Shown in pieces: positions 37,611 to 64,000 of a stretch of 64,000 nucleotides of DNA (position 1 is its first letter; the number at the start of each line of letters is the position of its first letter). The stretch is taken from positions 64,001 to 128,000 of the forward strand of contig JBFRWN010000124.1 in the NCBI GenBank assembly GCA_051439605.1. Direction: 5' to 3'. Source of the DNA: Synechococcus sp. (GTDB lineage: Bacteria; Cyanobacteriota; Cyanobacteriia; Thermostichales; PCC-7336). The translations under genes were made by a program, and so were the position numbers. The notes below the pieces were generated by a model. That model was not told the origin of the DNA and ran no database searches. It saw only the letters and a list, made by a program, of their open reading frames with translations.

Positions 37611-38177
37611 ATGCGATTAACACCCCAAATTACATGGCGGACTATCCCACCCTCTGAAGCTGCTGAGGCCAAGATTCGAGAACGGATAGGGAAGCTGGAC
37701 GAGTTCTATAGTCACATCATGGACTGTCGGGTGATGGTTGAAGCACCGCATCGACATCACCATAAGGGTAGTCTCTACCATGTGCGAATCGATCTAACTG
37801 TACCCGGCAGGGAATTGATCGTAAAACGCGATCCGCCAAAACATCAAGCCCATGAGGATATCTATGTAGCAATTCGTGATGCCTTTGATAGTGCCGAACG
37901 GGAACTCAAGGATTATGCTCAACGGCAAAGAGGGGATGTTAAGACTCACGAAGTTCCATTTCACGGACGGATAGTAATGTTGTCACCGGAAGAAAGTTGT
38001 GGCTTCATTCAAGCTTCTGATGGTCATGAACTGTATTTCCATCAAAATAGTTTGATTAATGCCAATTTCAATCAACTTGAAATTGGACAAGAAGTCCGCT
38101 TTGCAGAAGAAAAAGGGGATCGGGGTCCGCAAGCCAGTACGCTTAGGGTCATTGGAAAACATCATCTCCATGATTAA
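37611..38177 (+). CDS. HPF/RaiA ribosome-associated domain fused to a cold-shock domain
   Basis: QIT.R....SEA.E..IRE...CRV.VE.PHRHH.KG..YHVRI...VPG; C-terminal GFI...DG.E.YFH.NS...G.EVRF.EE.G..GPQAS. Confidence 0.9.
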   Translation: MRLTPQITWRTIPPSEAAEAKIRERIGKLDEFYSHIMDCRVMVEAPHRHHHKGSLYHVRIDLTVPGRELIVKRDPPKHQAHEDIYVAIRDAFDSAERELKDYAQRQRGDVKTHEVPFHGRIVMLSPEESCGFIQASDGHELYFHQNSLINANFNQLEIGQEVRFAEEKGDRGPQASTLRVIGKHHLHD

Positions 38178-39129
38178 AAAGTTCTCCTAAGGCCGAATCA
38201 GGCTTTTGCATAAGGTTTTCATCTTGACATCCAATTGCAGACTTGCCAAAACTATCGTTTCAGAAGTTTTTAGTCGAAACTAACAAAGAGGAGCTGGGCA
38301 CTTGTGAGTGTTGTAGGACTGAATCAGATCCTAATAGGTTACTCACAGTCTTTTGCAGAATTTCTGAGCCAGGAGTCTGTCAGCCAACTACATCTCAGGA
38401 ACAACTACTAATCAAGGGAGGGCATATTGGGAGAGTACCAAAAAGAGGAAAAAAGAGCGATCGCAGAATTAGAACAATACTATTCAGAGCGGAGTCATCT
38501 GCTCAATCAGACCAGAAGTTGGTAAACCCTCCTAGTAATATTTTGATGTATCGAACAGTGTGTAGATTGAATATAAAATCTAGTATGTCGAACATGTTTT
38601 CTAGGCAGTATTGATACTAGTTAATGAGTCTCCTCCTGAAAATTATTTAGAGTCGATCTATCTTTCACCATGCTGTAACAAAAAGTTGACTTTGATCGAA
38701 TATCTTCATCGTCTCTCTTCGGTAGATACTGAGTCGCTTGAGAGTACATCACAGTTTTACAAACCTTACATCACTCATGATTTTTCAAGGCCTCTCAAAA
38801 TGGCCACCAGAAGATGAATTGAGCTGTTATTACTCTAGCAATATAAGTTTTAAACAGAAATCTAGTGTTTCCAAGGATTTCTGTTTTCAACATGTACTCC
38901 TTTTCATTGCTTGAGTAATAAGTGTTTAGACTCATGACATGATTGAGATGCACTTTTGTTTTAGGGATAATAAGCCCATCCAACCAATCCAAGAGCAGAA
39001 ATTCAGTTATGGCTGAAGAACTAGGGATTAGACTAGATATAGGGACCTACTTTGAGAAATGACTCGTTAAGTAGCCACTCCCTATTTGTGGAAACAATTC
39101 ATGACATTAACCTAGAGGAGGTGATTGTT

Positions 39130-39555
39130 GTGACATACGATCCCGAACGAACTCCTGCCGAAGCTAATACCGTGTCGGCCCCGCAGAAAGACCTCACTGA
39201 AGAAGTCCTTAAGGTCAATTCAGGGGACGTAGTATTCGAGGACCTGGCAGATCGCGATACAGGGTTGGGAAGAACTTTACGGCGGCGGCTAGAGGAGGCT
39301 GGAGCTGGTGTGGCCCCCACAGGGGGTGATATCGATGTCAATCAGTATCAGGCTAAAGTCGGGGGTGAAGAAGCAGTGGGAGGAACAACACCTACGCCGG
39401 ATCAGAATGTGGTAGATGATTTGGCAGATTCCGTAGGTATTGGGACTCCTGACGAACATCCATTGCGTACTCTTCGGATGCTGCAACAGCGTGACGCCCA
39501 TCCGTGGGAGTTAGAGCCAGAGTCAGCTGAAGATTATGAGGAACGTAAGGACTGA
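39130..39555 (+). CDS. Acidic cyanobacterial protein (DUF6335-like)
   Basis: TGGDID...GEEAVGGTTPTPDQNVVD.LA..VG...WEL.PES; GTG start after GGAGGTG. Confidence 0.75.
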   Translation: MTYDPERTPAEANTVSAPQKDLTEEVLKVNSGDVVFEDLADRDTGLGRTLRRRLEEAGAGVAPTGGDIDVNQYQAKVGGEEAVGGTTPTPDQNVVDDLADSVGIGTPDEHPLRTLRMLQQRDAHPWELEPESAEDYEERKD

Positions 39556-39846
39556 GCCGCCGTAAAAGAAACTGTCAAACCTGTCTACTCAAGATCGAGG
39601 TAGGAATAACTGCCTGCTGTTCTGCCAACTGATCCAAAACATCAGTCTAGTCGGAGTTTCATGCGCTGCCCCACTATAGCTCCAGCAAGCATTGTCAACT
39701 TTATTCAATGGGTCATTCCTTCTTGCAAAAGGTCTAAAGAAGTGGCCAAAAAATCTTAATCTACTGTTCCCAATGCCAAGAATTTCTGACTAAATTCTCA
39801 ATGAAGTGCAAGCATACCAGTTAATGTGATAATTCCGGTTGAACCA

Positions 39847-40482
39847 ATGACAAAATCAATACACCCGATTGAGGGGCTTCAGGAAATCGTGTCCAGCTAT
39901 CGTCACATGCGAGGTGAACACGGACGAGAGGGCGAGCAAGGAAGCTGGCGCCGGAATCTGGTAGCACAGATGGAAGAACTGGAGCAGAAATTCGAGACAT
40001 TGCTTTCTCGTTGGGTGCTAGATGAAAAAGATCGAAGTAGCTGGCGTAATTGTCTTCACCATGGAGATCCGACACCGGAAGATAACTTGGAACGGGTACC
40101 TCCCATGTTCCTGGGTCGTTCAGAGATGGGTTCTGTAGTAGAGTTTCGAGAGAGTCCTCAAGGTGAGTACGCAGTCATTGTGGATGGAAGTTTGAGGCAG
40201 AGGTCTTCAAGTAGATTGACCTTTGGTGACTCTCGTCCCGTACTGGTTAACTTCGCGGATCAGAAATGGACTGAAATTAGTAGGGTTGACGAGTCTGCGT
40301 TAGAGGGGTTGCAAGGCTATGTTGCATCTCCCGCGGGTGAACCGCCCTGGCAGTTGGCTAGAATGCTGTTTTCCGATGGGCTGATTGACGCAAACTATAG
40401 TCTGACACCTCGTGGGAAGCGCATTCTGAACCAACGAGCAATGGAAAAGGAAGGACTGTTTCCATCTGAGGTGACGTTTTGA
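39847..40482 (+). CDS. Hypothetical protein
   Basis: Intact ORF of about 211 aa with globular-looking composition; C-terminal PPW..AR.L..DGLID.NYSLTPRG.R (winged-helix-like end). Confidence 0.75.
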   Translation: MTKSIHPIEGLQEIVSSYRHMRGEHGREGEQGSWRRNLVAQMEELEQKFETLLSRWVLDEKDRSSWRNCLHHGDPTPEDNLERVPPMFLGRSEMGSVVEFRESPQGEYAVIVDGSLRQRSSSRLTFGDSRPVLVNFADQKWTEISRVDESALEGLQGYVASPAGEPPWQLARMLFSDGLIDANYSLTPRGKRILNQRAMEKEGLFPSEVTF

Positions 40483-40937
40483 GACAGAATTGAACTTGTA
40501 ATATATTTATATCGTTGAGCTCGGATCTACTGCGTTACTCTGAATATCAAACCAATTTAAGTGAATGTGGTAATGATAAAACGATTAAATTGATCGCGAA
40601 CATTTGTAAGGCAAAATTACTGTACGTATTTTCGTCAACCTCTATCGAAGTCTAACCTTAGACAATTAGCTGTACGTGAGAGAAATAGCGATCTTATCTG
40701 AATTATATTAACAAAAAATATAGACTTCTACTACGTCTTGGCTTATTCAGTTTTAGTTTTGTAAGCAGCAACTATACTTAAAGAATAGAGCCTATAGAAC
40801 CGAAGCAAAAAACCTCAATCAATCACCTTGAGATTGATTAGTTTTCATATATGTATGAATCGTACATACAACAATAGCTTGATAGTCCTTTTTACATTCC
40901 ACCCAGTAGGGATTGCAATGGTAGAACCAGCTAAAAC

Positions 40938-41231
40938 TTATAGAAAAACAGAAAGTCTCTGGCCAAAATCAGCGAGGAGTTTACTCAATTGTTCCATTGT
41001 GTATCCGGGCTTCGATCGAACGGGAATGTCTGGATGAGTTGCGATGTGGATCTCATTGACAATTGCTGCGATTGATTCAAGATGCCCAAAGCTTTGTCCG
41101 TGCTTCATTGCTATCTCACGAAAGTGCTCGAACTGCTCTCTAGACATGTCCTTTCGGAAGGCAGCTAGATAGTCAAGAACTCGCTTCGAGGACTCTGCTC
41201 GGGATGGGCTTTTCCTTGAATAGTCTGTCAT
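40938..41231 (-). CDS. Hypothetical protein (97 aa)
   Basis: ATG start, helical pattern, fills an intergenic gap. Confidence 0.5.
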   Translation of the reverse strand: MTDYSRKSPSRAESSKRVLDYLAAFRKDMSREQFEHFREIAMKHGQSFGHLESIAAIVNEIHIATHPDIPVRSKPGYTMEQLSKLLADFGQRLSVFL

Positions 41232-41673: not shown

Positions 41674-42012
41674 TTACTGCCAGTCAGCATCTGCTTGAGC
41701 TAGGACATAAGCTGAGACAGATTCAATTTGCTGTTCATCCAGTCGACCGGCAAAGGCAGGCATGGCATTTTTACCCTTCCTGACTTGAGATTGAATGGCG
41801 TCTATGGATGCCATGTTGTACTTCCCTAAGGTTGCTTTCTTTAGATCTTTGTTAGCGACTACAAGGTTAGCCCCGCCCTTGTGACAAGTCACACATTGAG
41901 CGTTAAAAACAGTTTTACCGAGGCTAAGATCGGGTTCTGCGCTAGCAGGATATGGAAAAGCAAGAGCTAAAACGACTAAAGCAACAAAAACAATACGAAT
42001 GAGTCTATTCAT
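41674..42012 (-). CDS. petJ: Cytochrome c6
   Basis: Signal peptide ending ASA; CVTCH heme motif; GGAN; QV..GKNAMPAF.GRL. Confidence 0.92.
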   Translation of the reverse strand: MNRLIRIVFVALVVLALAFPYPASAEPDLSLGKTVFNAQCVTCHKGGANLVVANKDLKKATLGKYNMASIDAIQSQVRKGKNAMPAFAGRLDEQQIESVSAYVLAQADADWQ

Positions 42013-42370
42013 CGAACAATGCTCCCGCTGCGCACAAGACAATTATTTCTAATGAGGTATACATTTTCGACAAGGCATCAGATTTTGTCAAAAGACAGGC
42101 TGTCAAAGATTATATTCTGTTTCATCTGGAAAAGAATATTGTCTGAGATGATATATTCTACTTCGGCTAAGCGTTGAGTTTGCGAGCTTCAGTAAAAATG
42201 GCCGATCAAAATCCCCTTTTCCTGTTTAAGTTCGAAATAAACAGTTACTAGAAACTTGATAATTTACACGCTACTCGAATCAGTTTCCCAGTCACTTATA
42301 AAGGAGAAAACTCTTTAATATTTTGCGAAATAAAACTATTTTGTAAGATTTGCTGTCTCAGTTATAATTC

Positions 42371-42402
42371 CTCACAAGAATCTCAAGTCAACTCTGTATC
42401 CT
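42371..42402 (+). promoter_or_regulatory. Candidate promoter motif upstream of DHODH-like/pfkA
   Basis: CTCAC aagaat CTCA agtcaactctg TATCCT. Confidence 0.45.
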
Positions 42403-42715
42403 TAATTGTGGTCAAGTGTTTTCCTTAAAGTCTAAAGCAAGTATTGATGGATATTCTATGTAATGAAACTATTCTGAATGATTTACAGAAAAATGCTGAA
42501 ACATTAAGCTGTAATAAAGTCCTCAATGGCTAGTTATTGAAGTCGATCTTCATTTCTAGATAGTGTCAAATTTTGCATAAGGGAGAACTTAGCATGACAC
42601 GGAACATGTTAGCTACTCGGTATCGTGGCATCCATAGTCTACCAACGGTCACACAAAGTGACAGCAATCGTACGTTGAGGTGGAGAAAAAACACTCGGCC
42701 AAGAGGTAATTTGTA

Positions 42716-43744
42716 ATGGATTTAACGACAACGTATATGGGGTTGGAATTGCGATCCCCATTGGTTCCCTCAGCATCAGCCCCCCTGACTCACGAGATTG
42801 AAAACGTCAAAAAGATGGAAGACGCTGGCGCGGGGGCAGTAGTTCTGCATTCCTTGTTTGAAGAACAGCTGAAGATGGAGCAGGACAAAGATCGCCAACA
42901 CCACACCTACGGAATCGAAAGTTCTGCCGAAGCCCTAAGGTATCTTCCCGAACCCCGAATCTTCCAGGTGGACCCCTCTACCTACCTGAACAATATTCGT
43001 GCTGCCAAGGAAATGGTCAAGATTCCCATCATTGCCAGCCTCAATGGTTCCACGATGGGGGGATGGACAGAATACGCAGTTCAAATTGAGGAGGCAGGGG
43101 CCGATGCCATCGAGCTCAATATTTACCAAGTACCGACTGACTTCGATCGCACTGGTTCTGAAATCGAACAAACCTATCTAGACATTGTTTCTGCAGTTAA
43201 ATCGGCTGTTTCTATTCCGGTGGCAGTGAAACTCAGCCCTTACTTCAGCAATATGGCCAATATGGCTAAGCAAATCTCTGAGGTAGGAGCAGATGGATTA
43301 GTTCTCTTCAATCGCTTTTATCAACCCGATATCTATATTGATAGCTTGGAGGTAAGACCGAGTATTCTTCTCAGTACGCCGCAGGCACTCCGATTGCCCA
43401 TGCGGTGGATAGCGATTCTCTACGGCCGAGTTTCTGCCGATCTCGCTGCTTCGGGTGGCATTTCCATCGGTCAAGAGGCCATAAAAATGCTCATGGCGGG
43501 AGCGAGCATCACCATGGTTTGTTCGGCACTTTTACGACATGGCATCAATTATTTGTCCACCATCGAAGAGGGTATGTGCAAGTGGATGCAGGATAATGAC
43601 TACACATCGGTACGCCAGTTACAAGGCATTGTGAGCCAAGAAAACTGTCCCGATCCCGATGCCTTCGAACGCGCTCAATATATACGTGCTATTCAGAGCT
43701 ACTTGCCAAGCAAGGACTACTCCCCGTCCCGCTACTATGGATAA
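42716..43744 (+). CDS. Dihydroorotate dehydrogenase-like flavoprotein (type usually linked to PFOR)
   Basis: MDLTTTYMGL.LRSPLV.SAS, SLFEEQ, PIIASLNG, AVKLSPYF, LFNRFYQPD, FERAQY. Confidence 0.9.
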   Translation: MDLTTTYMGLELRSPLVPSASAPLTHEIENVKKMEDAGAGAVVLHSLFEEQLKMEQDKDRQHHTYGIESSAEALRYLPEPRIFQVDPSTYLNNIRAAKEMVKIPIIASLNGSTMGGWTEYAVQIEEAGADAIELNIYQVPTDFDRTGSEIEQTYLDIVSAVKSAVSIPVAVKLSPYFSNMANMAKQISEVGADGLVLFNRFYQPDIYIDSLEVRPSILLSTPQALRLPMRWIAILYGRVSADLAASGGISIGQEAIKMLMAGASITMVCSALLRHGINYLSTIEEGMCKWMQDNDYTSVRQLQGIVSQENCPDPDAFERAQYIRAIQSYLPSKDYSPSRYYG

Positions 43745-43756
43745 CGCGAACATCTT

Positions 43757-46170
<2,414 letters not shown>

Positions 46171-46303
46171 CTAAATCAATCCCTACGACGGAACGGTTGG
46201 CCTGCTGCAGTTGCTCCGATAACACCGCATCTAACTTGGTGGCCACTGTATCTGCTAAAGCGATCTGCAGGAGGTCGGCCAATTGCTTGCAAAAAGAACT
46301 CAG

Positions 46304-46768
46304 CTATGTGGGTTGGATAACTAATGTGTTGCAGCGTGCGTGATGCACGACATAGTTACTGACGCTACCCAGCATCAATTCGGTGAGTCTCGATCTACCG
46401 TGCCGTCCCATTACTATCAGATCGGTGTTCCTGTCTCGGGCAACGTCGCAAATAGTTCGGCCAGGATCTCCATATTTTTGGACAATCTCCGAATTCACAC
46501 CTGCAGCGCTGACTTTTTCTGCGTACTTTTGCAGCTTTTGCAAGCAAGACTGCTCGAACTCTTGCCACTTATGCTGAAACGTTAAAAAATCATCTATAAG
46601 AGAAGAAGGAGCATAAAAAAGATTTGGCGGAGCCCCTTCCTCCTCACCATACATAACGTGAAGCAGCGTTAATTCAGCTCCAGTTGCTTTAGCTAATTGC
46701 ACCGCCTTTTGAAAAATTGATTCGCTTGTTTTCGAGATATCCAGAGCGACAAGAATTTTTTGAATCAC
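46304..46768 (-). CDS. Universal stress protein
   Basis: QKILVALD.S, GDPG.TIC, IVMGRHGRS.L.ELMLGSVSNYVVHHARC. Confidence 0.95.
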   Translation of the reverse strand: MIQKILVALDISKTSESIFQKAVQLAKATGAELTLLHVMYGEEEGAPPNLFYAPSSLIDDFLTFQHKWQEFEQSCLQKLQKYAEKVSAAGVNSEIVQKYGDPGRTICDVARDRNTDLIVMGRHGRSRLTELMLGSVSNYVVHHARCNTLVIQPT

Positions 46769-47546: not shown

Positions 47547-47573
47547 TTGAATGCATCCTTTATTGTTTGGTGA

Positions 47574-47783
47574 CTACAACAATCGGGCCTGGTTCATCGC
47601 AGGGTTACAGTCCGAAAGGCATTTCTCGAGAAAAATCAGCAATCTTTCCTTGACATTTGCGACCGGTAGATCGTGAGTGGAGATACTCGGCGGTTGGTGT
47701 ATCCCAGTGCGATTGTAAAGAATGTCCCGAGCCCTTTCCATCACTTCCAGCTTAAGCTCAGAAGTTCGTATATTGGTTGCCAT
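47574..47783 (-). CDS. Small hypothetical protein (69 aa)
   Basis: ATG with GAGG upstream; co-oriented and 27 nt ahead of the PNPOx-like gene. Confidence 0.55.
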   Translation of the reverse strand: MATNIRTSELKLEVMERARDILYNRTGIHQPPSISTHDLPVANVKERLLIFLEKCLSDCNPAMNQARLL

Positions 47784-47943
47784 TCAGGCCCTCACCAAGT
47801 CAGAACCCAGTAGCCATCTAGCAACAAAACTTCAAGTCAGTCGGATATTCGTGTTCCAAACAGGCGAACAAAGCTCAGATGATGGCCCGCTTTGGCTTGA
47901 AAGTATTACCCAAAACGCGCCCTTTTTAATTAACCTAATAAAG

Positions 47944-48147: not shown

Positions 48148-48711
48148 GAGAAGTACACCTCCTCAAGTTAGGATTAATGGATAGAAAAACCCTTCTACTA
48201 ATATTTTAGGCCGTTTGAAAAGCTCTATCTATGGAATGGTTGCAAAATTTCACCTGAATGATTGAATTCTGGGGAGAATCGCCAAAGCCGATGTCAACAA
48301 GTTGAAGTTTGTATTATAGGTTAATCAGCGGTTAGAATTGTTTCAAAAGAAGAGTCCAAGTCAAGCACGAACTTTGCTTTTTCCTGAATTCCCCATTGCA
48401 GCGATGTTGGGACTTTCCTCTCTTCTAGTTGACTACCGTACCAAGCGATCGGTCATTTGACTACTGAGCCTAGTACTGGATCGATTGAGTTCCAGCGCTA
48501 TCAGATGTTACGAGCTATCGATATCTAGTTCGTGCAGATACCTAGGACATTGAGCGATAATGAAAATAGATATTTTACGCAATTGGCAAATTCAATTATG
48601 TGTAGCATTTGGTCTATGCAATTGATAGCCAGAGTGACAATTTTTGCTGCCAGAAAAAGTTGAATCGTACGTTGAGTCGGCAGGCAGATCTAAACGATCG
48701 AGGAGAGCCTT

Positions 48712-49098
48712 ATGCGATGGGTAAAAGTGTTAGAGCAAGGCGCTCTGTCAGAGGGAATGCGACATGTCGTTAAGGTTGGCAAACTTTCAGTTCTTCTCCT
48801 CCAAGAAAAAGGAGAAATACTTGCTATGGATAGTATCTGTCCTCATATGAGAGGACCCATGCAAAAGGGAGAATTGACCGCAGATGGCGGTATTGTTTGT
48901 CCGTGGCATCGTAGTGTTTTCGATATACGTACTGGTGACGTCAAACAATGGTGCCCTTGGCCACCAGGTGTAGGAAAGGCATTGGGTGCAATTTCACGTG
49001 AAAAAGCTCTACCAGTTTTTCCCGTACGGCTGGAAGATGGGAGTATCTTGATTGGCCTAGATGAATCGAAGACTGAGGGGATTGGAAACTCCCTTTAG
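48712..49098 (+). CDS. Rieske [2Fe-2S] ferredoxin-like protein
   Basis: CPH...CPWH ligands, extra WCPWPP; GAGGAG RBS. Confidence 0.92.
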   Translation: MRWVKVLEQGALSEGMRHVVKVGKLSVLLLQEKGEILAMDSICPHMRGPMQKGELTADGGIVCPWHRSVFDIRTGDVKQWCPWPPGVGKALGAISREKALPVFPVRLEDGSILIGLDESKTEGIGNSL

Positions 49099-49152
49099 CG
49101 AGCAGTAGTAAAACCACGTCCATGTAGAATCGGGAGTTTACAGGGAAGTTCC

Positions 49153-50406
49153 ATGGACGCCTACAACTCAGCTTTATACGAAAAGATTAAGCGTCTGATT
49201 GATTCCAATCCTCAGGGAAGAATCACTTTTGCCCAATTCATGGAGGTTGTTCTCTACAATCTTCGCCAGGGTTACTATTCCGCCCATGCAAAGAAAATTG
49301 GCAGTTATGGAGACTACTATACTTCTCCTCACTTAGGTCCTCATTTTGGAGAACTGTTAGCGGAACAGTTTTTCGATATGTGGCAGTCGCTCGGGTACCC
49401 TAACCCATTTTCACTGGTTGAAATAGGATCCGGTCAAGGGGTACTGGCTGGCGACATACTCATGTATGTCAAGAATCAATATCCGTTTTTCTTTCAGTGC
49501 ATACGTTATGTAATGATAGAAATCTCTCCTGAACTACGGTCTTTTCAGCAGGGACTACTACTCAGCGTTGATGGTTTAGGGGAAAAGATTCAATGGGTGT
49601 CTTTTGAAGATATATCTAAGAGTTCTATCGTTGGATGTATATTTTCCAATGAATTGGTGGACGCCTTTCCCGTTCATTTAGTTGAAGTCCGCAACAGACA
49701 GCTACATGAAATCTATGTATCGGCAAGTTCTGACACAAGCAATCTTACTCGTTTGCAGGAAGAAGTCGGCGAACTATCTACCTCGCACATAGCTAACTAT
49801 TTCAGTCGGTTAGGAACCAATTTGGAGTCAGACCTTTATCCAAACGGATATCGAAGCGAGGTAAATCTGGCGGCAATTGACTGGATAAAAATAGTGGCAG
49901 ATAAGCTCTTGCAGGGATATTTGTTAACGATTGACTACGGTTACAGCAATTCTCAGTATTACAGTCCGAAACGCCCTCGCGGGACTCTGGCTTGCTATTA
50001 CCGACATACCGTTCGCGATAATCCTTACCTGCTATTGGGTGAGCAGGACATCACAACCCATGCCAATTTCACAGCTTTGGAATATTGGGGTGAGTATTTT
50101 GGTTTGCAGAGGTTGGGGTTTACACGACAAGGACCTTTTCTAATGGCCCTCGGACTCGGGGAAAAAATGGCCGAGCTATCTCTACCCCAAGAGACGGCTC
50201 GCGGAACAAACATTCAAGAGATACTGCATCGCCGTCATGCCTTGCATTTATCGATCCATCCTCACGGACTGGGCAACTGGGGAGTGCTTATTCAGGGAAA
50301 AGGATTGAGTGAACAACAATTAGCTGTTCCTTTACGTGGATTGGCAAATGCTGCAGAGACAGCGGAGGATTGGTGCGCGATGCCTTTATCCCAGTCAGCT
50401 ACTTGA
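49153..50406 (+). CDS. SAM-dependent methyltransferase, MidA/NDUFAF7 (DUF185) family
   Basis: ITFAQFM..LY...GYY, GDYYTSP, EIGSGQG, SNELVDAFP, IDYG, QDIT.H.NF. Confidence 0.92.
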   Translation: MDAYNSALYEKIKRLIDSNPQGRITFAQFMEVVLYNLRQGYYSAHAKKIGSYGDYYTSPHLGPHFGELLAEQFFDMWQSLGYPNPFSLVEIGSGQGVLAGDILMYVKNQYPFFFQCIRYVMIEISPELRSFQQGLLLSVDGLGEKIQWVSFEDISKSSIVGCIFSNELVDAFPVHLVEVRNRQLHEIYVSASSDTSNLTRLQEEVGELSTSHIANYFSRLGTNLESDLYPNGYRSEVNLAAIDWIKIVADKLLQGYLLTIDYGYSNSQYYSPKRPRGTLACYYRHTVRDNPYLLLGEQDITTHANFTALEYWGEYFGLQRLGFTRQGPFLMALGLGEKMAELSLPQETARGTNIQEILHRRHALHLSIHPHGLGNWGVLIQGKGLSEQQLAVPLRGLANAAETAEDWCAMPLSQSAT

Positions 50407-51452: not shown

Positions 51453-51453
51453 T

Positions 51454-52250: not shown

Positions 52251-53435
52251 CTAGCGGTCTACCTCGCCCATAATGATGTCAATGCTGCCAAGAATGGCAA
52301 TGATATCCGCCACCTTCATTCCCTTAACCAATTGGGGTAAAACCTGAAGGTTGATAAAACCAGGGGGACGAATTTTCCACCGCCAAGGAAAGATGTTTGC
52401 ATCACCCATGAGATAGATACCGAGTTCACCTTTCGGGGCCTCCAGGCGCGCGTATACTTCTCCCTCCGGGAATTTGAACATCGGTGAAGTCTTCTTGCTC
52501 GCAAACTGATATTGAAAGTCACTCCATTCCGACTTGGGACCTCCCATCATCCGCTGGGCTTCTAGATTCTCGTAAGGACCTCCAGGCAGTCCGGCGATCG
52601 CTTGTAAAACAATCTTGGCGGACTCCCGCATTTCGTTGATGCGGACAAAATACCTGGCCAGACAGTCACCGCCCGTTTCCCAAACCACATCCCAATCGAA
52701 ATCGTCATAGCACTCGTAATGGTCAACTTTTCGCAAGTCCCATTTCATGCCTGAAGCCCGTAGCATCGGACCTGAAACCCCCCAACCTATTGCATCTTCG
52801 CGACTGAGAGTGCCGACACCTTCGGTGCGCATGCGGAAAATAGGGTTATCGGTAATCAGCCGTTCGTATTCATCGACTTTGGGTATGAAGTAGTGGCAAA
52901 AATCTTCAACTTTATCAACCCAACCGTAGGGAACGTCGGCAGCCAGTCCACCAATACGGAAGAAGTTTTGCCCGACCATTCGCATCCCCGTGGCGGCTTC
53001 AAATAAGTCGTAAATCAGTTCTCTTTCTCGAAAGATATAAAAGAATGGAGTATGAACTCCCAAATCCGAGCAAAAGGGTCCCAGCCACAATAGGTGATTG
53101 GCAATGCGGCTGAGCTCAAGCAAGATGACCCGCAAGTAGCTCGCCCGTCTGGGTACGGAAATATCGGCAAGTTTTTCAGAGGCGTTGACGGCAATCGCCT
53201 CGTTCCACATGGCTGCAGCATAATCCCAACGGGTTGTATACGTGATGTATTGTATTGCCGTACGATTTTCGGCAATTTTCTCCATTCCGCGATGTAGATA
53301 CCCGACAATGGGGGTGCAATCGACGACATTTTCGCCATCTAAAGTGACTAGCATGCGGAAAACACCATGGGTGGCCGGGTGATGCGGCCCCATGTTGATG
53401 ACCATCTGGTCGAGCTTGGTTTCGACAACTGTCAT
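52251..53435 (-). CDS. ndhH: NDH-1 subunit H (probable second copy)
   Basis: [33 protein letters not shown]-terminal [12 protein letters not shown]. Confidence 0.96.
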
Positions 53436-55993: not shown

Positions 55994-56338
55994 ATGACTG
56001 CAAATATCACTGATACAAAAAAAATAACAAAAGAACAGGCCATAATAGCTGTACTAGAGGCCGAGAAAAAATCAAGATATGCCATTGAAAAATGCAAATC
56101 TGAAGAAGATAAAATAATGCAAGAAGCACGCCAGAAGTCCCAGAAAATTATAGAGCGTGCCGAGCAACGTATGGCGCAAATTCATCGGATTTGCAATCAA
56201 TTAAGCACCAATGAAGTGAATCGAACTGAGCAAGAAGCTGAGGAACATGCTAAGCAACTACTTTCATGTGAAATAGATTTTAAGATAGCAACAGTCGTGG
56301 TTGAAAAAGTTGCAGAGATGTTGACTGAAGAACTCTAG
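55994..56338 (+). CDS. V/A-type ATPase peripheral stalk subunit G/H-like
   Basis: VLEAE...EARQK...I.ERAE coiled coil; first gene of the V/A-ATPase operon. Confidence 0.7.
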   Translation: MTANITDTKKITKEQAIIAVLEAEKKSRYAIEKCKSEEDKIMQEARQKSQKIIERAEQRMAQIHRICNQLSTNEVNRTEQEAEEHAKQLLSCEIDFKIATVVVEKVAEMLTEEL

Positions 56339-56371
56339 GTCTAAGGTATATAAAAGCTTTTGGTCGTACTC

Positions 56372-57133
56372 ATGTTGAAAGACTTTATCTATATTCAAAC
56401 TCGACTTCAAGCTCGGCATGGTATGCGCCCCGACAACCAAGAATGGCAGATTCTGGAAAGTCAAAAAGATCTAGCGGCTTTTTTGCACAGTGCACGCCAT
56501 ACTCGTCTGAAGCCCTGGGTACTCAGTCTGCATGCAAGCGACAATCACCACGTACTAGAAACAACACTACGCCAACTTTACTGCAATTATGTGGATGAAG
56601 TCGAACACTGGATGCCCTCGGTATGGCAAGCATCAGTGCGGTGGGTAAAGTACCTACATTATTTGCCTTCGCTTCAATATCTATTGTCTGGCAATATAGT
56701 CTATGCCTGGATGTTGGAAGATCCACAACTTAAAGAGTTGACTGGAACTAATGTAGAAACACGTATCCAAATTCTGCGCCAGTCTGCATATGCTCCACTC
56801 ATCGATCCTTGGCAGTCAGGAAAACCGCTGTTAACAGCTTGGACCGAACATTGGCGATCGTTATGGCCCGATCAAAACAACAATAGATCTATAAATAAAT
56901 TGATTTCATCAATCGATGGGCATCTTTTTAAATTTGGGCAGATCTCATCTCATCCGGGGAGAAAAAGCCGCGAGATATTTACTGCCAAACTATCTATCCT
57001 ATTTCGCCAGTTCAGTTATCAGCCGGTTGCTGTTTTCATCCATCTAGCACTTATTGCTTTAGATGTTGAAAGGTTGCGCAGTAATATTCTGCAGCGTTGT
57101 TTATTCGATCGTTCTAAGGTTGTGCTGCTATGA
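56372..57133 (+). CDS. ntpC: V/A-type ATPase subunit C-like
   Basis: Y.Q.RLQARHG...W..L; overlaps subunit I start; operon position. Confidence 0.65.
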   Translation: MLKDFIYIQTRLQARHGMRPDNQEWQILESQKDLAAFLHSARHTRLKPWVLSLHASDNHHVLETTLRQLYCNYVDEVEHWMPSVWQASVRWVKYLHYLPSLQYLLSGNIVYAWMLEDPQLKELTGTNVETRIQILRQSAYAPLIDPWQSGKPLLTAWTEHWRSLWPDQNNNRSINKLISSIDGHLFKFGQISSHPGRKSREIFTAKLSILFRQFSYQPVAVFIHLALIALDVERLRSNILQRCLFDRSKVVLL

Positions 57134-58950
57134 CATTCAGGCCTGTTCCAGCCCGCTGGTTTGAAGTAATCGCGACTCAAGAGGATTTACTCAGCGCGTT
57201 AGACATCCTGCGAAAAACTGGAGATATCGAATTGGAAATTCATAGTGAAATGCCTCGTCCCACTACAATTACTAATCTACAAAATCGTTTGGAAGGCTTT
57301 AATCAGCTTGCACGTCAATATCGAGCCTATTGGCCCAAACCTAATCCTCACGCTACGAAAGTAGTTGGTTTACCTGGCGAATGCTTAGATAGCGCCTTAG
57401 AGAAATTCAGCCTCTGGAGGCAGGCAGCCGATTCGCTAGTTGAACTCATTGAGGAGTTAGCGAGCGAACAGGATGACTTGTTATGCCTGTCGGAGTTTTT
57501 ACAGAAACTGCAAGGTGAAGAATTAGATTTCGCCAACCTCGCACGTGCAGGGCCTATCCTTTGCGCACGCTTATTTGTATTTCCATTTACAACTCAGATC
57601 GAACATTTGCCTACTTCAGCACTATCTATTCAAGTTCCGACAGACGAACGTATCTTTTTGTTAATAGTTGGGGAAGTTGAAACAGTTGATGGCTGGCAAC
57701 GGGATTTATTATTGCAGAAAGGTCGCGCTATTACATTGCCTAACTGGCTCAATGGTAAACGGACAAATGTTGTTGCCCAGGTAGAACAACGGAAAATCCA
57801 GATTCGCGAGAAATTGACGTTGCTTAATGCACAGCTGGATACCATTGCTACAAAACATCATTTGCCAGGAGTGTTGAGCGAGATACGGCAGATTGAGTGG
57901 TTTATTACTCATGCGAGTAATTTACCTGTTTCAGACAATTTTGCCTGGATCACGGGTTGGACCAGCGATATTTCTAGCGATCGACTCAATGAGGCCTTGG
58001 AAGCTGCATCTGTTCGTGCTGTGGTTCATTATCCACCGCCGCCAGTAGAGGCCAAGCCACCCATGGTGTTACAAAATCCCTGGTGGTCAAAACCCTTTGA
58101 GCTATTTGCCAAACTGTTGGGTATACCCTCCACCAACGAAATCGATCCTTCCATGTTTCTCGCATTGATTGTGCCATTGCTATTTGGCTACATGTTTGGG
58201 GACGTTGGCCAAGGTTTTATCCTGATGGTTGCTGGTATTACTATGCAGCGCCACTTTCCAATGCTCAAACTTTTAATAGGATGTGGCTTATCGGCTATGG
58301 TGTTTGGCCTGGTATTCGGGAGCGTGTTCGCTAGTGAAACAATTATTAACCCTTTATGGGTCAATCCTATCAACTCTCCCTTGTCTGTATTGTTCGTTCC
58401 TTTAGGAGGTGGTGTAATCCTGCTGCTATTGGGGCTTGCCTTTAGTGGCGTGCAGGCTTACTGGCAAGGTGAACTGAAAAACTGGTTGCTCAAAGAGGCT
58501 GCTACGATCGCAATATACATCGGGATTGTCGGAAGCGTTTTTCATCTGATTATCAGCATACTGATATTAATTGGGGGGATTTGGTATGTTGCAGGCAGCT
58601 TGTGGTTGACTGACAATCCTTCTCCCAAAGCTCTGTTACCTGTGCTAGGTCAGCTCCTGGAAAGTGGACTGCAATTAATTATTAACACGATTTCTTTTAT
58701 TCGGGTCGGTGCATTTGCCTTAGCCCACGCAGGACTTTCATTGGCATTCATTATCATGGCTGACGCAACTGGCAATGTCCTTCTAGCTGGAATCATTATA
58801 CTGATTGGAAATATTGTCATTATTCTTTTAGAAGGTCTGGTAGTCTCGATTCAAACCACCAGATTGATACTGTTTGAATTTTTCATTCGGTTTATGCGAG
58901 GCACCGGTCGCATGTTTCATCCGTTAGCCATATCTTCAGAATCATCATGA
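57130..58950 (+). CDS. ntpI: V/A-type ATPase subunit I (a)
   Basis: ITGW, P..L.NP.W.KPFE, EIDPS, FGYMFGDVGQG, NTISFIRVGAFALAH, IQTTRL..FEFF. Confidence 0.95.
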   Translation: MTFRPVPARWFEVIATQEDLLSALDILRKTGDIELEIHSEMPRPTTITNLQNRLEGFNQLARQYRAYWPKPNPHATKVVGLPGECLDSALEKFSLWRQAADSLVELIEELASEQDDLLCLSEFLQKLQGEELDFANLARAGPILCARLFVFPFTTQIEHLPTSALSIQVPTDERIFLLIVGEVETVDGWQRDLLLQKGRAITLPNWLNGKRTNVVAQVEQRKIQIREKLTLLNAQLDTIATKHHLPGVLSEIRQIEWFITHASNLPVSDNFAWITGWTSDISSDRLNEALEAASVRAVVHYPPPPVEAKPPMVLQNPWWSKPFELFAKLLGIPSTNEIDPSMFLALIVPLLFGYMFGDVGQGFILMVAGITMQRHFPMLKLLIGCGLSAMVFGLVFGSVFASETIINPLWVNPINSPLSVLFVPLGGGVILLLLGLAFSGVQAYWQGELKNWLLKEAATIAIYIGIVGSVFHLIISILILIGGIWYVAGSLWLTDNPSPKALLPVLGQLLESGLQLIINTISFIRVGAFALAHAGLSLAFIIMADATGNVLLAGIIILIGNIVIILLEGLVVSIQTTRLILFEFFIRFMRGTGRMFHPLAISSESS

Positions 58951-58966
58951 AAATGATAAGGAGGAA

Positions 58967-59323
58967 ATGGTCATGATTTCGCACAATAAACATCTATTTA
59001 TTTTGCTCAAGATTACCCTCTCGATCGCTATAGTGGGTGCCACACTTTTTTGGCTAGAGCCAACAATGGCAGCGACTGTTACTACAGATAGTTTAATATC
59101 ACCCGAAATTGTCCAAGCAAGTTATTTCTCTGCTGCATTAGCAACAGGTCTTTCTTCACTTGGTGCAGGCATTGCTGTAGCTTCAGTAGGGAGCGCTGCT
59201 ATAGGGGCATTAGCAGAAAAACCAGAGTTGTTAGGCCGCGTATTAATCATGGTTGGCCTTGCAGAAGGCATTGCAATCTACGGGCTGATCGTATCTATCC
59301 TAATTTTGAATGAAGTTATTTAG
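58967..59323 (+). CDS. ntpK: V/A-type ATPase proteolipid subunit K (c)
   Basis: GAGIAV..VG.AAIGA.AEKPE...GLAEGIAIYGL. Confidence 0.93.
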   Translation: MVMISHNKHLFILLKITLSIAIVGATLFWLEPTMAATVTTDSLISPEIVQASYFSAALATGLSSLGAGIAVASVGSAAIGALAEKPELLGRVLIMVGLAEGIAIYGLIVSILILNEVI

Positions 59324-59324
59324 A

Positions 59325-59621
59325 ATGAGTGCACCGATTTTTATTGGCGATGAAATTAGCGCTGCAGGTTTTCGGCTAGCAGGCGTAGAGACTCGAACAC
59401 CAAACCCTGATGAACTTCCAAATCTAATCAAGTGGGCTTGTGTTAATACATCTCTGTTATTAATTACTGCGGAATATGCAGCTATGTTGTCCGCAGCAGA
59501 AAGACAACGTTTGCTGTGCCAGGAAATGCCTTTGGTCGTGACGATTTCAGATATTTGCGCTAAGACTCCCTTACCGGATTTAGTGACTGAATTACGATCG
59601 CAACTAGGAGTCTTAGCATGA
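59325..59621 (+). CDS. V/A-type ATPase subunit F
   Basis: IFIGDE.SAAGFRLAGV...LITAE...QLGV. Confidence 0.9.
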   Translation: MSAPIFIGDEISAAGFRLAGVETRTPNPDELPNLIKWACVNTSLLLITAEYAAMLSAAERQRLLCQEMPLVVTISDICAKTPLPDLVTELRSQLGVLA

Positions 59622-60259
59622 ACGCATCATCCAGCATCGTTCACACACAAGTCGAGCGTTTACTCGATGTCGTGCAGAGATATCAACAACAGCAATGCGA
59701 CAAGATCGTCACTCGGGCTACAGCGGAAGCCGAGCAGATGATTCATCAGACTTATCGAGATGTCCGTCTTCGTTTACACCAGGAAATTCTAGACAGTCGC
59801 GATCGCCTGCAGGGGAAGATTTCAGCATCCAAGGCGAAAAGCCATACCCTCCGAAAAAAATACCAACACGAAGCAGACCGCCGCTATTTGGATCGGGCTT
59901 GGGATTTGCTGAAGGTTAAACTGATCGAACGCTGGCAGAACAAAGAATATCGGCAGCGATGGGTGCAAAAACATTTAGTAGAAGCATTGAGGCTTTTAAT
60001 TGGCCCAGAGTGGTTAGTTGAACATCCGCATAGTTGGACTGTGGATGAACAGCAGCATTTTATTCACCAGGTCAGGGATAAATGTGAGGTTGTTGTTAAT
60101 TTTTCTGCATCGCCAGATATTGTTGCCGGTGTTCGCATTTGCGCCAATGGAGCAACGATCGATGGCACTTTGCAAGGACTGTTGGCGGATCGGTCGCGAA
60201 TTGAGTCTGAATTATTAGCGCAATATCATCAGTATATTTTGTGTGGCAGTGGGTCATAA
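59618..60259 (+). CDS. ntpE: V/A-type ATPase subunit E
   Basis: N-terminal coiled coil, C-terminal I.AGVRI...IDGTL..LL; position before subunit A. Confidence 0.8.
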   Translation: MNASSSIVHTQVERLLDVVQRYQQQQCDKIVTRATAEAEQMIHQTYRDVRLRLHQEILDSRDRLQGKISASKAKSHTLRKKYQHEADRRYLDRAWDLLKVKLIERWQNKEYRQRWVQKHLVEALRLLIGPEWLVEHPHSWTVDEQQHFIHQVRDKCEVVVNFSASPDIVAGVRICANGATIDGTLQGLLADRSRIESELLAQYHQYILCGSGS

Positions 60260-60302
60260 CAAATCCATCTAATTTGTCAAAGCGGGAAGCGAGGCAGTTG
60301 TT

Positions 60303-62060
60303 ATGAGTACAGCAAGCATTACCTGGATCGGCGGACCAGTTTTGCATGCACAGACAGCAGATATTTTTCATATCAATGAAGCTGTGGTGGTAGGTGCACA
60401 AAAACTGTTGGGCGAAGTCATTCAAATTAAAAGCCAGGAAATCGTCGTTCAAGTGTACGAAGATACCAGCGGTTTACGGCCAGGTGATGTGGTAATTGGC
60501 TACGGTAAGCCCCTTTCCGTAAAACTTGGGCCGGCATTACTGGGAAACATCTTTGATGGTTTGCTAAGGCCCTTAGTGTCGGTAGGCGGCACATTTATCC
60601 AGCCTGGCACGATCGAGCCTGTTCCGAAATCTTTTCATTTTACGCCCAAGGTTAAAACGGATGAATTATTAGCTAGTGGAAGCATCATGGGCACCGTTCG
60701 ATCGGAATCGGGACAACTGCAGCATTGCCCGATCCCGCCAAATGTCAGTGGAATTGTCACCGACGTTGTTGAGCCGGGCGAATATAGCGATGAACAAACG
60801 GTTTGCGTAATAGAAGATAGCCAGAAGAACCGACACGAAATTGCCATGAGCCATTGGTGGCCCGTGCGTCAACCCCGACCCTTTGCCGAACGATTACCCA
60901 CCCTCGGTCCACTGTTGACCGGTCAACGCATCCTAGATTCTATTTTCCCGCTGGCAAGTGGCGGACGTGCGGCGATCCCCGGTGGTTTTGGGACTGGCAA
61001 AACAATACTATTAGAGACTCTCGCCAAATGGTGCGATTCTGACGTCATCTTATATGTTGGTTGCGGAGAACGTGGCAACGAGATGGCCAGTGTGTTGCAC
61101 GAACTGCCCCAATTAGAAGACCCCCGTACTGGCCGACCTTTAATGGAACGTACAGTTATTATTGCCAATACCTCCAATATGCCGGTAGCTGCAAGGGAAG
61201 CGAGTATTTACACCGCGGTGACAGTTGCTGAATATTTTCGAGATCGAGGATTGCGGGTTGCGCTCATGGCAGATTCCACCACCCGCTGGGCAGAAGCGCT
61301 ACGAGAAGTGTCCGGCAGGTTGGGTGAAATACCTAGCGAAGCAGGCTATCCAGCCTATCTAAGCAGTCGGTTAGCTGATTTTTACGAACGTGCTGCTTAC
61401 GTTCGCACAGCATCCGACCAGATTGGCTCGTTAAGTATTATTGGCGCGGTAAGTCCGCCCTCTGCTGATTTTTCTGAACCAGTGACCATCCACACCAAAC
61501 GTTACGTGCGGGTGTTTTGGGCGTTAGACCCCAATCGCGCTCAGGCGCGATTTTATCCGGCGATACACCCTTTGCAATCCTATTCAGGGGATCTGACCGA
61601 GCTCGTTTCATTCTGGAAAGAACACAATCATCCCCAATGGCTAGAACAACGCCGACGTTTCCTGACCTTTCTAGAAAAGCAAAGCCGCTTAGAACGAATA
61701 GCGCGGATTGTGGGTAAAGATGCTTTACCCACAAGGCAACAGCATATTTTGTTATGTGCTGACTTGATTAATGAAGCGTTTCTGCGTCAATCTGCATTTT
61801 CCCAAGTCGATCGGTATTGTTCTCCAGAACGTCAGGCAGCCATGATGAAATTAATTACGCGGTTTATCGATCTTTCACTGGAAGCGATCGAACAACAAGT
61901 AGACATCGAATCGATTACAAATCTGCCATTGTTGCGTCGCTTACGCCGAATGAACGAAGATCTGGGTGAGGACGACATGGAACAATTTAATGTCTTGCGG
62001 GCTGATATGGAAAATGCATTTGGCAAACTGATGAAACAGAGAACGAGCGATGCTAGCTGA
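60303..62060 (+). CDS. ntpA: V/A-type ATPase catalytic subunit A
   Basis: QVYEDTSGL, WPVR.PRP, PGGFGTGKT, GCGERGNEM, NTSNMPVAAREAS, GYPAYL.SRL..FYERA. Confidence 0.98.
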   Translation: MSTASITWIGGPVLHAQTADIFHINEAVVVGAQKLLGEVIQIKSQEIVVQVYEDTSGLRPGDVVIGYGKPLSVKLGPALLGNIFDGLLRPLVSVGGTFIQPGTIEPVPKSFHFTPKVKTDELLASGSIMGTVRSESGQLQHCPIPPNVSGIVTDVVEPGEYSDEQTVCVIEDSQKNRHEIAMSHWWPVRQPRPFAERLPTLGPLLTGQRILDSIFPLASGGRAAIPGGFGTGKTILLETLAKWCDSDVILYVGCGERGNEMASVLHELPQLEDPRTGRPLMERTVIIANTSNMPVAAREASIYTAVTVAEYFRDRGLRVALMADSTTRWAEALREVSGRLGEIPSEAGYPAYLSSRLADFYERAAYVRTASDQIGSLSIIGAVSPPSADFSEPVTIHTKRYVRVFWALDPNRAQARFYPAIHPLQSYSGDLTELVSFWKEHNHPQWLEQRRRFLTFLEKQSRLERIARIVGKDALPTRQQHILLCADLINEAFLRQSAFSQVDRYCSPERQAAMMKLITRFIDLSLEAIEQQVDIESITNLPLLRRLRRMNEDLGEDDMEQFNVLRADMENAFGKLMKQRTSDAS

Positions 62061-63450
62061 TGTCAGTACACGGGGGACAGCCACCCGAATCGAAGGTCCA
62101 CTTCTATTTTTGAAACGCAACCTCAACGTGGGTTTGAATGAAGCCGTGGAGGTGCTAGATACGAAAGGTCATGCGCGTTTAGGCCGGATTGTAACGCTGG
62201 ATGAAGATCGGTTGATTATTGAAGTGCTGGAATCCACCAGTGGTTTGGCGTTATCCAATATCAAAGTCCGCTTTTTGGGTGAACCCTTACATTTTAATGT
62301 GGGGCCCGATCTGTTAGGTCGCATCCTCGATGGGGTCGGACGTCCGTTAGATAGTGGTCCACCCGTTTCATCGCTACAACGTTTGCGGATTGATGGTTTG
62401 CCGCTAAATCCTGCCGCACGATCGAATCCTACGGACTTTATTGAGACTGGCATCACGACGATCGATTTAATGAATAGTTTGGTGCGCGGACAAAAGTTAC
62501 CTATTTTTTCCGGTGGAGGCTTGCCTCACGAACGCATTGCCACGCACATCGCTCAGCAAGCTCGCTTGCGGGGTGAAGCTCGTGGAGAATTTGCGGTGGT
62601 ATTTGTTGCGATTGGCGTTTCGTACGATATAGCGGAACAGTTTCGCCGAGCTATGGAAGAAAGTGGTGCCTTGGAACATACGGTTTTATTTCTGAACCTG
62701 GCATCGGATTCCAGTACCCAACGTTTGCTTGCACCCCGTTATGCATTGACGGCGGCGGAGTATTTGGCATTTTACGAAGATAGACATGTTCTAGCGATCG
62801 TGACTGACATGACTAATTACTGTGAAGCATTAAGGGAAGTCTCCGCCAGTCATGGTGAAATACCTAGCCGCAAAGGATATCCAGGTTATATGTATTCCGA
62901 TCTAGCAAACCTCTTTGAACGCGCGGGATGTATCCAGGGGAAAAAAGGTACCTTGACTCAGTTGCCGATCTTAACAATGCCTGCTGATGACATTACCCAT
63001 CCCATTCCAGATTTGACCGGATATATTACTGAGGGACAAATAGTTTTGGATCGTGAACTCGATCGCCGGGGGATTTATCCACCTATAAAAGTTTTACCCA
63101 GTCTTTCCCGCCTAATGAAAGATGGGATCGGTAAGAACTACACCCATGTGGATCATCCAGCGTTAGCGAACCAATTATATGCAGCCTATGCGCGTTCGGT
63201 GCACGCGCGGGTTCTAGCCAGCGTCATGGGTCAAGAAAGTTTATCAAAAGTTGACCGTATCTTTTTGCAATTTGGCGATCGGTTTGAAAACCAATTGGTA
63301 AGACAGGATCGTCCACGTACCCTGGAGAACAGTATGGAAATAGGTTGGCATCTATTACAACAGTTACCCATCGGCGAATTAACCCGTTTAAGCGATCGGC
63401 AGATTCAGCAGCATATAACGAATGGAGTAGCACACCATGCTAGTCAATGA
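62050..63450 (+). CDS. ntpB: V/A-type ATPase subunit B
   Basis: RGQKLPIFSG.GLPH, TDMTNYCEALRE, GYPGYMYSDL, DDITHPIPDLTGYITEGQI, LPSLSRLM. Confidence 0.98.
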   Translation: MLADVSTRGTATRIEGPLLFLKRNLNVGLNEAVEVLDTKGHARLGRIVTLDEDRLIIEVLESTSGLALSNIKVRFLGEPLHFNVGPDLLGRILDGVGRPLDSGPPVSSLQRLRIDGLPLNPAARSNPTDFIETGITTIDLMNSLVRGQKLPIFSGGGLPHERIATHIAQQARLRGEARGEFAVVFVAIGVSYDIAEQFRRAMEESGALEHTVLFLNLASDSSTQRLLAPRYALTAAEYLAFYEDRHVLAIVTDMTNYCEALREVSASHGEIPSRKGYPGYMYSDLANLFERAGCIQGKKGTLTQLPILTMPADDITHPIPDLTGYITEGQIVLDRELDRRGIYPPIKVLPSLSRLMKDGIGKNYTHVDHPALANQLYAAYARSVHARVLASVMGQESLSKVDRIFLQFGDRFENQLVRQDRPRTLENSMEIGWHLLQQLPIGELTRLSDRQIQQHITNGVAHHASQ

Positions 63451-64000
63451 ACAGGCCCCGACGCGTTCGGCTATTCTGCAATTGCAAGAAGAGTTGAGTG
63501 TTGTTCATGAAGCCTACGATTTTCTAGACGAAAAACGTTTGTTACTGGCATCAGAAATATTACAGCAATTAAAACAATATGAGAAGCTGTTAGATGAATA
63601 TGAGAAATTGCGTCAAATTGCTGAGAAAAATTTAATAGCAACCGTGCGGCGACATGGTTTTCAGGGTACACAGGTTTATCCAGCTAAATCTTTAGAAAAT
63701 TCTGATATTTGCATGAACAATGTATTATTTATGGGTGTTAGTTTATTGAAAACTGAATTGCAAATTCCAGAAGATAATACACTTACCCATATTTGCTATC
63801 CCTCCTCAGAAGCAAAGCAATGTCGGCAAAATTTCTTAGAGCTCGTCAAGCTAGCAGGAATTATTGGTGGGATTTCTAGTAATTTACATCGTTTGTCAGC
63901 CGAGTATCAGCGCACAGAGCGACGTGCTAGAGCCCTTGAGAATGTCGTAATTCCTGAAATGACTCGAACACTTCGCGATATGTCCACACAGCTTGAGGAA
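63437..64000 (+). CDS. ntpD: V/A-type ATPase subunit D (3' truncated by window)
   Basis: Manual translation MLVNEQAPTRSAILQLQEEL...AYDFLDEKRLLL...TERRARALENVVIPE; open to window end. Confidence 0.93.
   Translation, partial: MLVNEQAPTRSAILQLQEELSVVHEAYDFLDEKRLLLASEILQQLKQYEKLLDEYEKLRQIAEKNLIATVRRHGFQGTQVYPAKSLENSDICMNNVLFMGVSLLKTELQIPEDNTLTHICYPSSEAKQCRQNFLELVKLAGIIGGISSNLHRLSAEYQRTERRARALENVVIPEMTRTLRDMSTQLEE

Follow-up and report, generated by a model that had tools for sequence, protein, structure and literature searches.

In mitochondrial complex I, the methyltransferase NDUFAF7 (MidA) symmetrically dimethylates the arginine of an HRGxE motif of NDUFS2 (the 49-kDa subunit), beside cluster N2. 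This mark, found in mammals, yeasts and Paracoccus but not in Escherichia coli, has been tied to assembly of the complex and may shift the potential of N2 (PMC3829151, PMC3750175 and PMC8042128). Here we describe a cyanobacterial locus in which a gene of the same family, midA, is packaged with second copies of the genes for its presumed substrate, NdhH, and for NdhK. The locus lies in a stretch of 64,000 nucleotides (hereafter the window) of the Synechococcus sp. assembly GCA_051439605.1 (contig JBFRWN010000124.1, positions 64,001 to 128,000 of the forward strand), within an island of low GC content. Cyanobacterial NDH-1 isoforms arise by the exchange of NdhD and NdhF, and Synechocystis has an extra ndhK2. 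The present locus resembles these isoforms in that paralogous subunits would diversify one core complex, the other ndh genes checked being single-copy; it differs in that the swap would concern the quinone/N2 pair and not the membrane tip, and two apparently old NdhH types instead of recent duplicates.

The host genome (G000; 4.9 Mb in 143 contigs, the window being part of a 200-kb contig) can be assigned to an early-branching cyanobacterium of the Synechococcus sp. PCC 7336 lineage, since its housekeeping NdhH groups with a protein of that name. Below, G, C, L and f numbers denote genomes, contigs, loci and families.

The ndhH2-ndhK2/midA cassette and its proposed function

The cassette is composed of two units that face each other, Rieske-midA and ndhH2-ndhK2-trxB:

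48663..48676, + strand: 14-bp word lying 49 bases ahead of the Rieske gene
48712..49098, + strand: soluble Rieske ferredoxin (PF00355), both Cys/His motifs present
49153..50406, + strand: midA, methyltransferase of the NDUFAF7 family (PF02636), sole copy in the genome
50466..51452, - strand: trxB, thioredoxin reductase (TIGR01292), third gene of the ndhH2 unit, 73% identical to the copy on C81
51454..52224, - strand: ndhK2 (PF01058), all four N2 cysteines present in the alignment, 72% identical to the housekeeping NdhK
52251..53435, - strand: ndhH2 (NF005649), insertion type, HRG motif with Arg49, 75% identical to the housekeeping NdhH

MidA scored 232.5 bits against PF02636 (cut-off 23.3) and matched Dictyostelium MidA (PDB 5ztz, E 1e-15). 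NdhH2 scored 742 against NF005649 (cut-off 583), keeps the quinone-site His and Tyr in alignments, and is at most 78% identical to anything outside its own cluster. It reads HRGMEK where the housekeeping NdhH, of the short type defined below, reads HRAMEK. The locus is thus comparable to NDUFAF7 with NDUFS2 in the family of the enzyme and in the HRGxE motif, whose Arg is the one dimethylated by N2 in mitochondria, and differs from it in the packaging of the enzyme with second copies of its presumed substrate and of NdhK, and in that the host's own NdhH type goes without MidA. In two other records, relatives of NdhH2 (95–99%) apparently lie on the same contigs as relatives of MidA (74% and 91%).

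On balance, we consider it probable, though by no means assured, that within a mosaic island this cassette supplies an alternative quinone-reducing core of photosynthetic complex I (NDH-1) which is a predicted methylation target of MidA. In such a scheme, the target of MidA would be Arg49 of NdhH2, which adjoins cluster N2 and would be dimethylated. As ndhA, ndhG, ndhE, ndhC and ndhJ are single-copy in the host, NdhH2 and NdhK2 could act only on a shared complex, and would replace the housekeeping pair on the common membrane arm; the swapped complex would gain a different N2 environment or a different stability. AhcY, encoded elsewhere in the island, may remove the S-adenosylhomocysteine formed by MidA. 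The least certain step is the occasion of the swap, which might be stress, darkness or low oxygen and is judged from neighbouring genes. PfpI, SRPBCC and zinc dehydrogenase genes lie beside the cassette of G454 and beside the second ndhH of G125 and G383, the latter two also with DUF6335; we take these families, together with the USP, PNPOx-like and ferritin-like proteins, to be general-stress genes. No such clear stress-gene setting was seen around the cassettes of family f52, which we take to be Gloeobacter.

A further arrangement of this kind is found in G454, in which ndhH-ndhK faces midA as in the island layout, without trxB (L216:8928-12168). That genome yielded a single ndhH and a single ndhK, its ndhC-ndhJ lacking ndhK and its ndhA-I-G-E lacking ndhH (L238, L232), whereas its sister G441 has complete ndhC-K-J and ndhH-A-I-G-E, a short NdhH and no midA (L221, L223). 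G454 is 97% complete, which makes a missed copy possible, but the ndhC-ndhJ gap lies within one contig. Since the cassette is the only source of ndhH and ndhK found in G454, such a cassette can likely serve as a working quinone module. More generally, it appears to be a recurring and comparatively well supported NDH-1 variant in other early-branching cyanobacteria. In the literature searched, methylation of cyanobacterial NdhH was not found (subscription papers being mostly uncovered), nor was an ndhH2-ndhK2-midA cassette, although this limited coverage makes its absence from print a weak statement.

Two types of NdhH and the distribution of midA

An insertion of a single residue (four residues in place of three, at 153-156 of NdhH2) divides 72 distinct NdhH segments into 31 short and 41 long ones. 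All 31 short segments have [LI]ATM after the quinone-site Tyr, both outgroup NuoD rows are short, and the split held in each of the 110 readable proteins among 120 taken from databases. A careful tree was built from 33 of 56 rows, after 21 similar ones and 2 outgroups had been dropped; it separated 14 short from 19 long sequences at 96/91 and placed NdhH2 beside the protein of G454 at 83/82. The island MidA groups with those of f52 and G454 at 89 (unstarred).

Presence of midA was compared with these types. The midA profile had no match in the 6 further genomes from the host family, of which one is complete, and was found in all 23 of the sister family f2, where an insertion-type ndhH stands directly before ndhA. 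In two chosen cyanobacterial sets it was found in 77/80 and 24/80 genomes; in the set with 77, the three genomes that lacked it, G148, G395 and G319, all have HRS instead of HRG. The pattern HR[S/A/T] occurs in 60 of 401 genomes, and 55 of these 60, all of which were tested, are without midA. The remaining five comprise G000 and four genomes of f52; in all of them a second ndhH, with HRG, lies beside midA. In the four f52 genomes, G437, G448, G461 and G491, which have two ndhH each, this second copy follows midA directly, and in G437 and G461, the f52 genomes searched for it, a second ndhK-ndhJ also lies beside the midA cassette. Conversely, among the 65 genomes in which midA was not found, the NdhH of 60 is of the short type or carries HR[S/A], as judged from sequence or pattern, the other 5 being unread. 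A metagenome scan with MidA returned 40 loci (the best at 57% over a short stretch); none of the 15 examined has the island gene set. A Gly after the Arg was tried as a strict marker of midA and failed in G443, G617 and G500; the insertion is the better marker.

Several side observations concern ndhH copies elsewhere. In later-branching cyanobacteria a second ndhH was found in 6/185 genomes, of the insertion type like the first copies where read. In five later-branching cyanobacteria an AraC-family gene is followed by the second ndhH (L058:9925-12211, L060, L062, L078, L079), and in two of the five the latter stands beside a PfpI/SRPBCC/zinc dehydrogenase/DUF6335 cluster. G305 has a tandem second ndhH-ndhK with no midA beside it (L064:941-2919), which resembles a lineage-specific duplicate in the NdhK tree. 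The short-type NdhH, mostly heading an ndhH-ndhA operon, is common to several early-branching families and chloroplasts (L025, L026, L110, L209, L210; P0059, P0112).

From these types a bolder scenario can be drawn, which we put forward tentatively and hold to be rather doubtful: two quinone cores of NDH-1 might predate the deepest cyanobacterial split, namely a short, MidA-independent NdhH (plastids and several early-branching families) and a MidA-requiring insertion type travelling as an ndhH-ndhK-midA cassette. Most lineages would have fixed the second, and G000 and f52 would keep both and switch the N2 site by condition.

A number of results speak against the proposed alternative core. The short-type NdhH of G443, G617 and G500 has HRG without midA, and two named chloroplast NdhH rows and plant chains are also short with HRG. 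The midA and ndhH genome counts include related genomes and are not counts of independent events. NdhK2 was left unplaced in the NdhK tree, the approximately unbiased (AU) test failed to reject NdhH2 as a fast-evolving duplicate from within the family (p 0.099), and a quick tree with distant outgroups joined both f52 ndhH copies and gave no split. No promoter word was visibly common to the ndhH2/midA cassettes of other genomes. The link between AhcY and MidA may be due to chance, because three relatives without midA have the island-type ahcY as their regular copy. Finally, the E. coli enzyme functions without Arg methylation (PMC3750175).

Two other readings of the cassette have to be weighed. 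It might work and yet be no conditional isoform, but rather a surplus copy of foreign origin that is on the way to taking over from the housekeeping ndhH and ndhK. G454 would show such a displacement completed, the insertion-type ndhH of f2 (with midA) already occupies the place before ndhA, and a comparable swap of ahcY types is seen in G001 and G003; however, four f52 genomes retain intact copies of both NdhH types and NdhH2 is also kept in diverged relatives, which fits a long co-existence, and we regard displacement under way as somewhat unlikely. Alternatively, midA could be a passenger or act on another substrate, its place beside ndhH2 mirroring the gene order of the donor. As ndhH often adjoins midA in ordinary cyanobacteria (part of ndhH is present in 6 of 30 short midA loci), the block could move without need, and the short HRG proteins without midA point the same way. 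Nevertheless, gene order varies among G000, G437, G461 and G454 and midA stays with the insertion-type copy throughout, and no genome with an insertion-type NdhH alone and no midA turned up among those read, so that a passenger appears very improbable. The alternative quinone core remains the reading that we prefer.

The island and its other genes

A reading made from the sequence alone had taken positions 37611-64000 of the window for one co-regulated dark/low-oxygen module by which glycolysis, electron transport and membrane energisation are rewired. The genes it named are all present as intact open reading frames (ORFs) of the families it gave (NCBIfam, Pfam), although its inventory left out the DUF6930 and DUF6335 proteins and two ORFs without a family match. 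The features outside the cassette are:

32541..35256, + strand: USP1 and FtsH, backbone left of the island, order beside RNase Z kept in G001 and G003
35382..35399, no strand: 18-bp direct repeat, copy 1, exact; possible left end of an inserted sub-block
35634..37193, - strand: DUF6930/DUF7309 protein of 519 aa (Pfam), no other copy in the genome
37357..37474, no strand: transposase-like relic, 73% DNA match to the end of a transposase-like region on C88
37611..38177, + strand: protein with S30AE (HPF-like) and cold-shock domains (Pfam PF02482, PF00313)
39052..39555, + strand: DUF6335 protein (PF19861), also found near the second ndhH in G125 and G383
39826..40482, + strand: 218-aa protein without Pfam or NCBIfam match (Atlas best score 0.82, unnamed clusters)
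40938..41231, - strand: 97-aa ORF without family match (NCBIfam and Pfam searched)
41674..42042, - strand: second cytochrome c6 (NF045930), 77% identical to the copy on C122
42666..42679, + strand: 14-bp word lying 50 bases ahead of the DHODH-like gene, also found before the Rieske-midA unit
42716..44860, + strand: dihydroorotate dehydrogenase (DHODH)-like gene and pfkA (NF005741, NF002872), the second half of a typical nifJ operon, nifJ itself missing
44857..46158, - strand: ahcY, S-adenosylhomocysteine hydrolase (TIGR00936)
46298..46315, no strand: 18-bp direct repeat, copy 2, covering the USP2 stop codon
46304..47546, - strand: USP2 and PNPOx-like flavin-binding protein (PF00582, PF16242)
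47577..47877, no strand: transposase-like relic, 11 DNA matches elsewhere in the genome and a protein match to a 506-aa transposase-like ORF on C103
54768..55253, + strand: ferritin-like protein (PF00210)
55994..64000, + strand: V/A-ATPase operon of nine genes (I, K, F, A, B and D by family match; H/G, C and E by position only)

That the region is AT-rich with long spacers was borne out. Its GC content is 46.1% (51.3% in the genome), two 26-kb windows over it are the 5th and 6th lowest in GC among 492 overlapping ones, the coding density is 75% and 12 internal spacers have 33–50% GC. The low-GC island is real, but it spans about 35.3 to 65.8 kb, its right edge being a transposase relic about 1.8 kb beyond the end of the window. 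The association of USP1 and FtsH with it was not upheld: these genes were ruled out as part of the island by their conserved backbone order beside RNase Z in G001 and G003. Both flanks, RNase Z-USP1-FtsH on the left and psbO-pheA-ndhH-A-I-G-E on the right, are backbone in the relatives, and in G001 and G003 each has other neighbours, so that the island fills a rearrangement junction at about 35.3–65.8 kb. The island gene set is absent from this place in G001–G003, where the flanks and scattered single homologues were found, and a clean empty site with joined flanks was not found in G001 or G003.

Traces of mobility are spread over the island. At 37.4, 47.6, 64.3 and 65.3 kb the sequence matches repeated or transposase-like DNA, and at 55.3 kb there is an additional repeated piece. 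The exact 18-bp repeat, of which there are two copies only in the whole genome, brackets 35.4–46.3 kb (10.9 kb) in the manner of an insertion-site duplication, which points to a separate insertion. The HIP1 octamer occurs 0.82 and 0.65 times per kb in the flanks and 0.46, 0.33 and 0.12 times in three island blocks. Low GC content, mobile-element relics, a direct repeat and absence from relatives are shared with genomic islands at rearrangement hot spots; unlike these, the region has no intact integrase or tRNA site among the ORFs examined and apparently results from several insertions. It looks like a mosaic accessory island of probably imported genes rather than a clean single one, in which the V/A-ATPase and the block from the HPF-like gene to ahcY are likely separate arrivals at one hot spot. 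Second copies of the genes for cytochrome c6, the DHODH-like protein, pfkA, ahcY, USP, Rieske, trxB, ndhK, ndhH and ATPase A/B occur elsewhere in G000. Most island genes are duplicated in the host in this way.

The island AhcY is 39% identical to the copy on C19 and 73–79% to those of G002, G004 and G005. The host therefore has two unrelated ahcY types (second: L010:4424-5809); among its relatives, G002, G004 and G005 have the island type only and G001 and G003 the divergent type only. The assignment of the gene at 37611 to ribosome hibernation held in part, the S30AE and cold-shock domains being found by Pfam and the NCBIfam cut-off for hibernation-promoting factor (HPF, TIGR00741) being missed (28.6 versus 40.9 bits). 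Relatives of this protein occur in 47/250 other genomes.

An accessory island rich in stress and energy gene families is what remains of the sequence-only reading; a single co-regulated low-oxygen unit over the whole 26–29 kb we judge unlikely. Stress and fermentation-linked families are concentrated in it, and the DHODH-like gene belongs to the nifJ operon elsewhere: among the best 24 other cyanobacterial loci it adjoins nifJ, which encodes pyruvate:ferredoxin oxidoreductase (PFOR), in 22 and pfkA in 15. According to PMC11368403, the counterpart of this gene in Synechocystis, sll0744, responds to dark microoxic conditions with transient induction, and cyAbrB2 represses AT-rich DNA of Synechocystis in air, which could release such an island en bloc. 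Two of 14 starts, those of DHODH-pfkA (-50) and Rieske-midA (-49), are preceded by a 14-bp word present in two copies in the genome; a shared word as long as 14 bp arose in 14 of 500 shuffles, and the matching distance was noticed afterwards. The DNA of this sediment cyanobacterium also occurs in marine sediment metagenome runs, five of which were examined, all with long near-identical pieces. Against this stand at least ten separate units on both strands, and three blocks that differ in nearest relatives and HIP1 density. The only spacer words clearly above the shuffle maximum were parts of the HIP1 octamer, so no island-wide motif was detected, and a TGACA-like word seen by eye was not among the top words. 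The conserved clustering that had been expected was not found in G001–G003, and only sub-pairs recur elsewhere: of 24 loci of the HPF-like cold-shock gene, one has DUF6335 nearby, two PNPOx-like and one a pfkA fragment, none having more of the set, and the neighbours of the DHODH-like gene in the 24 loci do not rebuild it either. The link with PFOR thus stands for the gene family, but the host nifJ-DHODH pair is on C46; the island resembles the nifJ operon in its DHODH-like gene followed by pfkA and differs in having no nifJ, nor any relic of one before the DHODH-like gene. Even less credible, and in our view close to negligible, is a mis-assembly or contaminant, of the island or of its V/A-ATPase, in a metagenome-type genome. 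The assembly has 143 contigs and 4% contamination, the nearest named V/A-ATPase relatives are mostly gammaproteobacterial, and no single listed contig of the runs examined spans either outer junction. Run X1, however, which may be the source sample, has even depth (about 26–41) over island and backbone and a contig spanning 53124-56819, from ndhH2 into the ATPase operon, which makes a chimera unlikely; island and backbone pieces also occur in further runs of three studies.

On C46, downstream of nifJ and its DHODH-like gene, lie the gene for a 449-aa protein that has no Pfam match and a gene of the amino-acid-kinase family (L009:166-7254). The region before the island DHODH-like gene (42655-42680) shares a short word with that before the host nifJ (L009, upstream of 7254), at a similar distance to the start.

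The V/A-ATPase operon, whose D gene ends 90 bases beyond the window, has intact catalytic motifs. Its subunit A is 63% identical to that of a gammaproteobacterial genome with the same gene order and up to 79% to mostly unnamed proteins. It differs from the gammaproteobacterial system in its carrier, a cyanobacterium: this type was found in 0/350 other cyanobacterial genomes, four of which have a V/A-ATPase of another type (38–43% identical). A genome scan with ATPase A for relatives of the whole island gave 4 loci, none of them cyanobacterial. Two close matches are labelled Kaarinaea lacus and filed under Nostocales by NCBI, so that another cyanobacterial carrier or a mislabel is possible. Rings coupled to Na+ have a Glu followed by Ser/Thr, and a Gln ligand. 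The ring subunit here has Glu-Gly and no Gln in the first helix, and proton coupling is therefore predicted. PMC4154653 covers F- and N-type enzymes; a literature search for a V-type ATPase in the PCC 7336 lineage found none.

G000 has two more, partly assembled V/A-ATPase loci of another type, in the order B-D-I-K-E-C-A (L007:4187-10914 on C29; L008:45-1604 on C120), also present in G001 and G002; the host may thus hold three V/A-ATPases. On C120 (L008:1-3657), ATPase A, an ion channel and a glutamate symporter are 99.6–100% identical to those of G001:C134 (L022:40-3391), whereas backbone genes differ by 5–35%; either recent transfer or cross-binning would account for this.

Implications for NDH-1

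The island as a whole appears to be ordinary mosaic cargo. If the proposed role of the cassette is true, NDH-1 isoforms would gain a further axis of variation, at the quinone/N2 site, and a task could be given to the cyanobacterial MidA. The cassette would also offer a natural test of the effect of Arg dimethylation beside N2, for which PMC8042128 leaves both assembly and redox tuning open, because one cell would hold methylated and unmethylated versions of one complex. The split between the NdhH types bears, in addition, on the resemblance of plastid NdhH to that of early-branching lineages.

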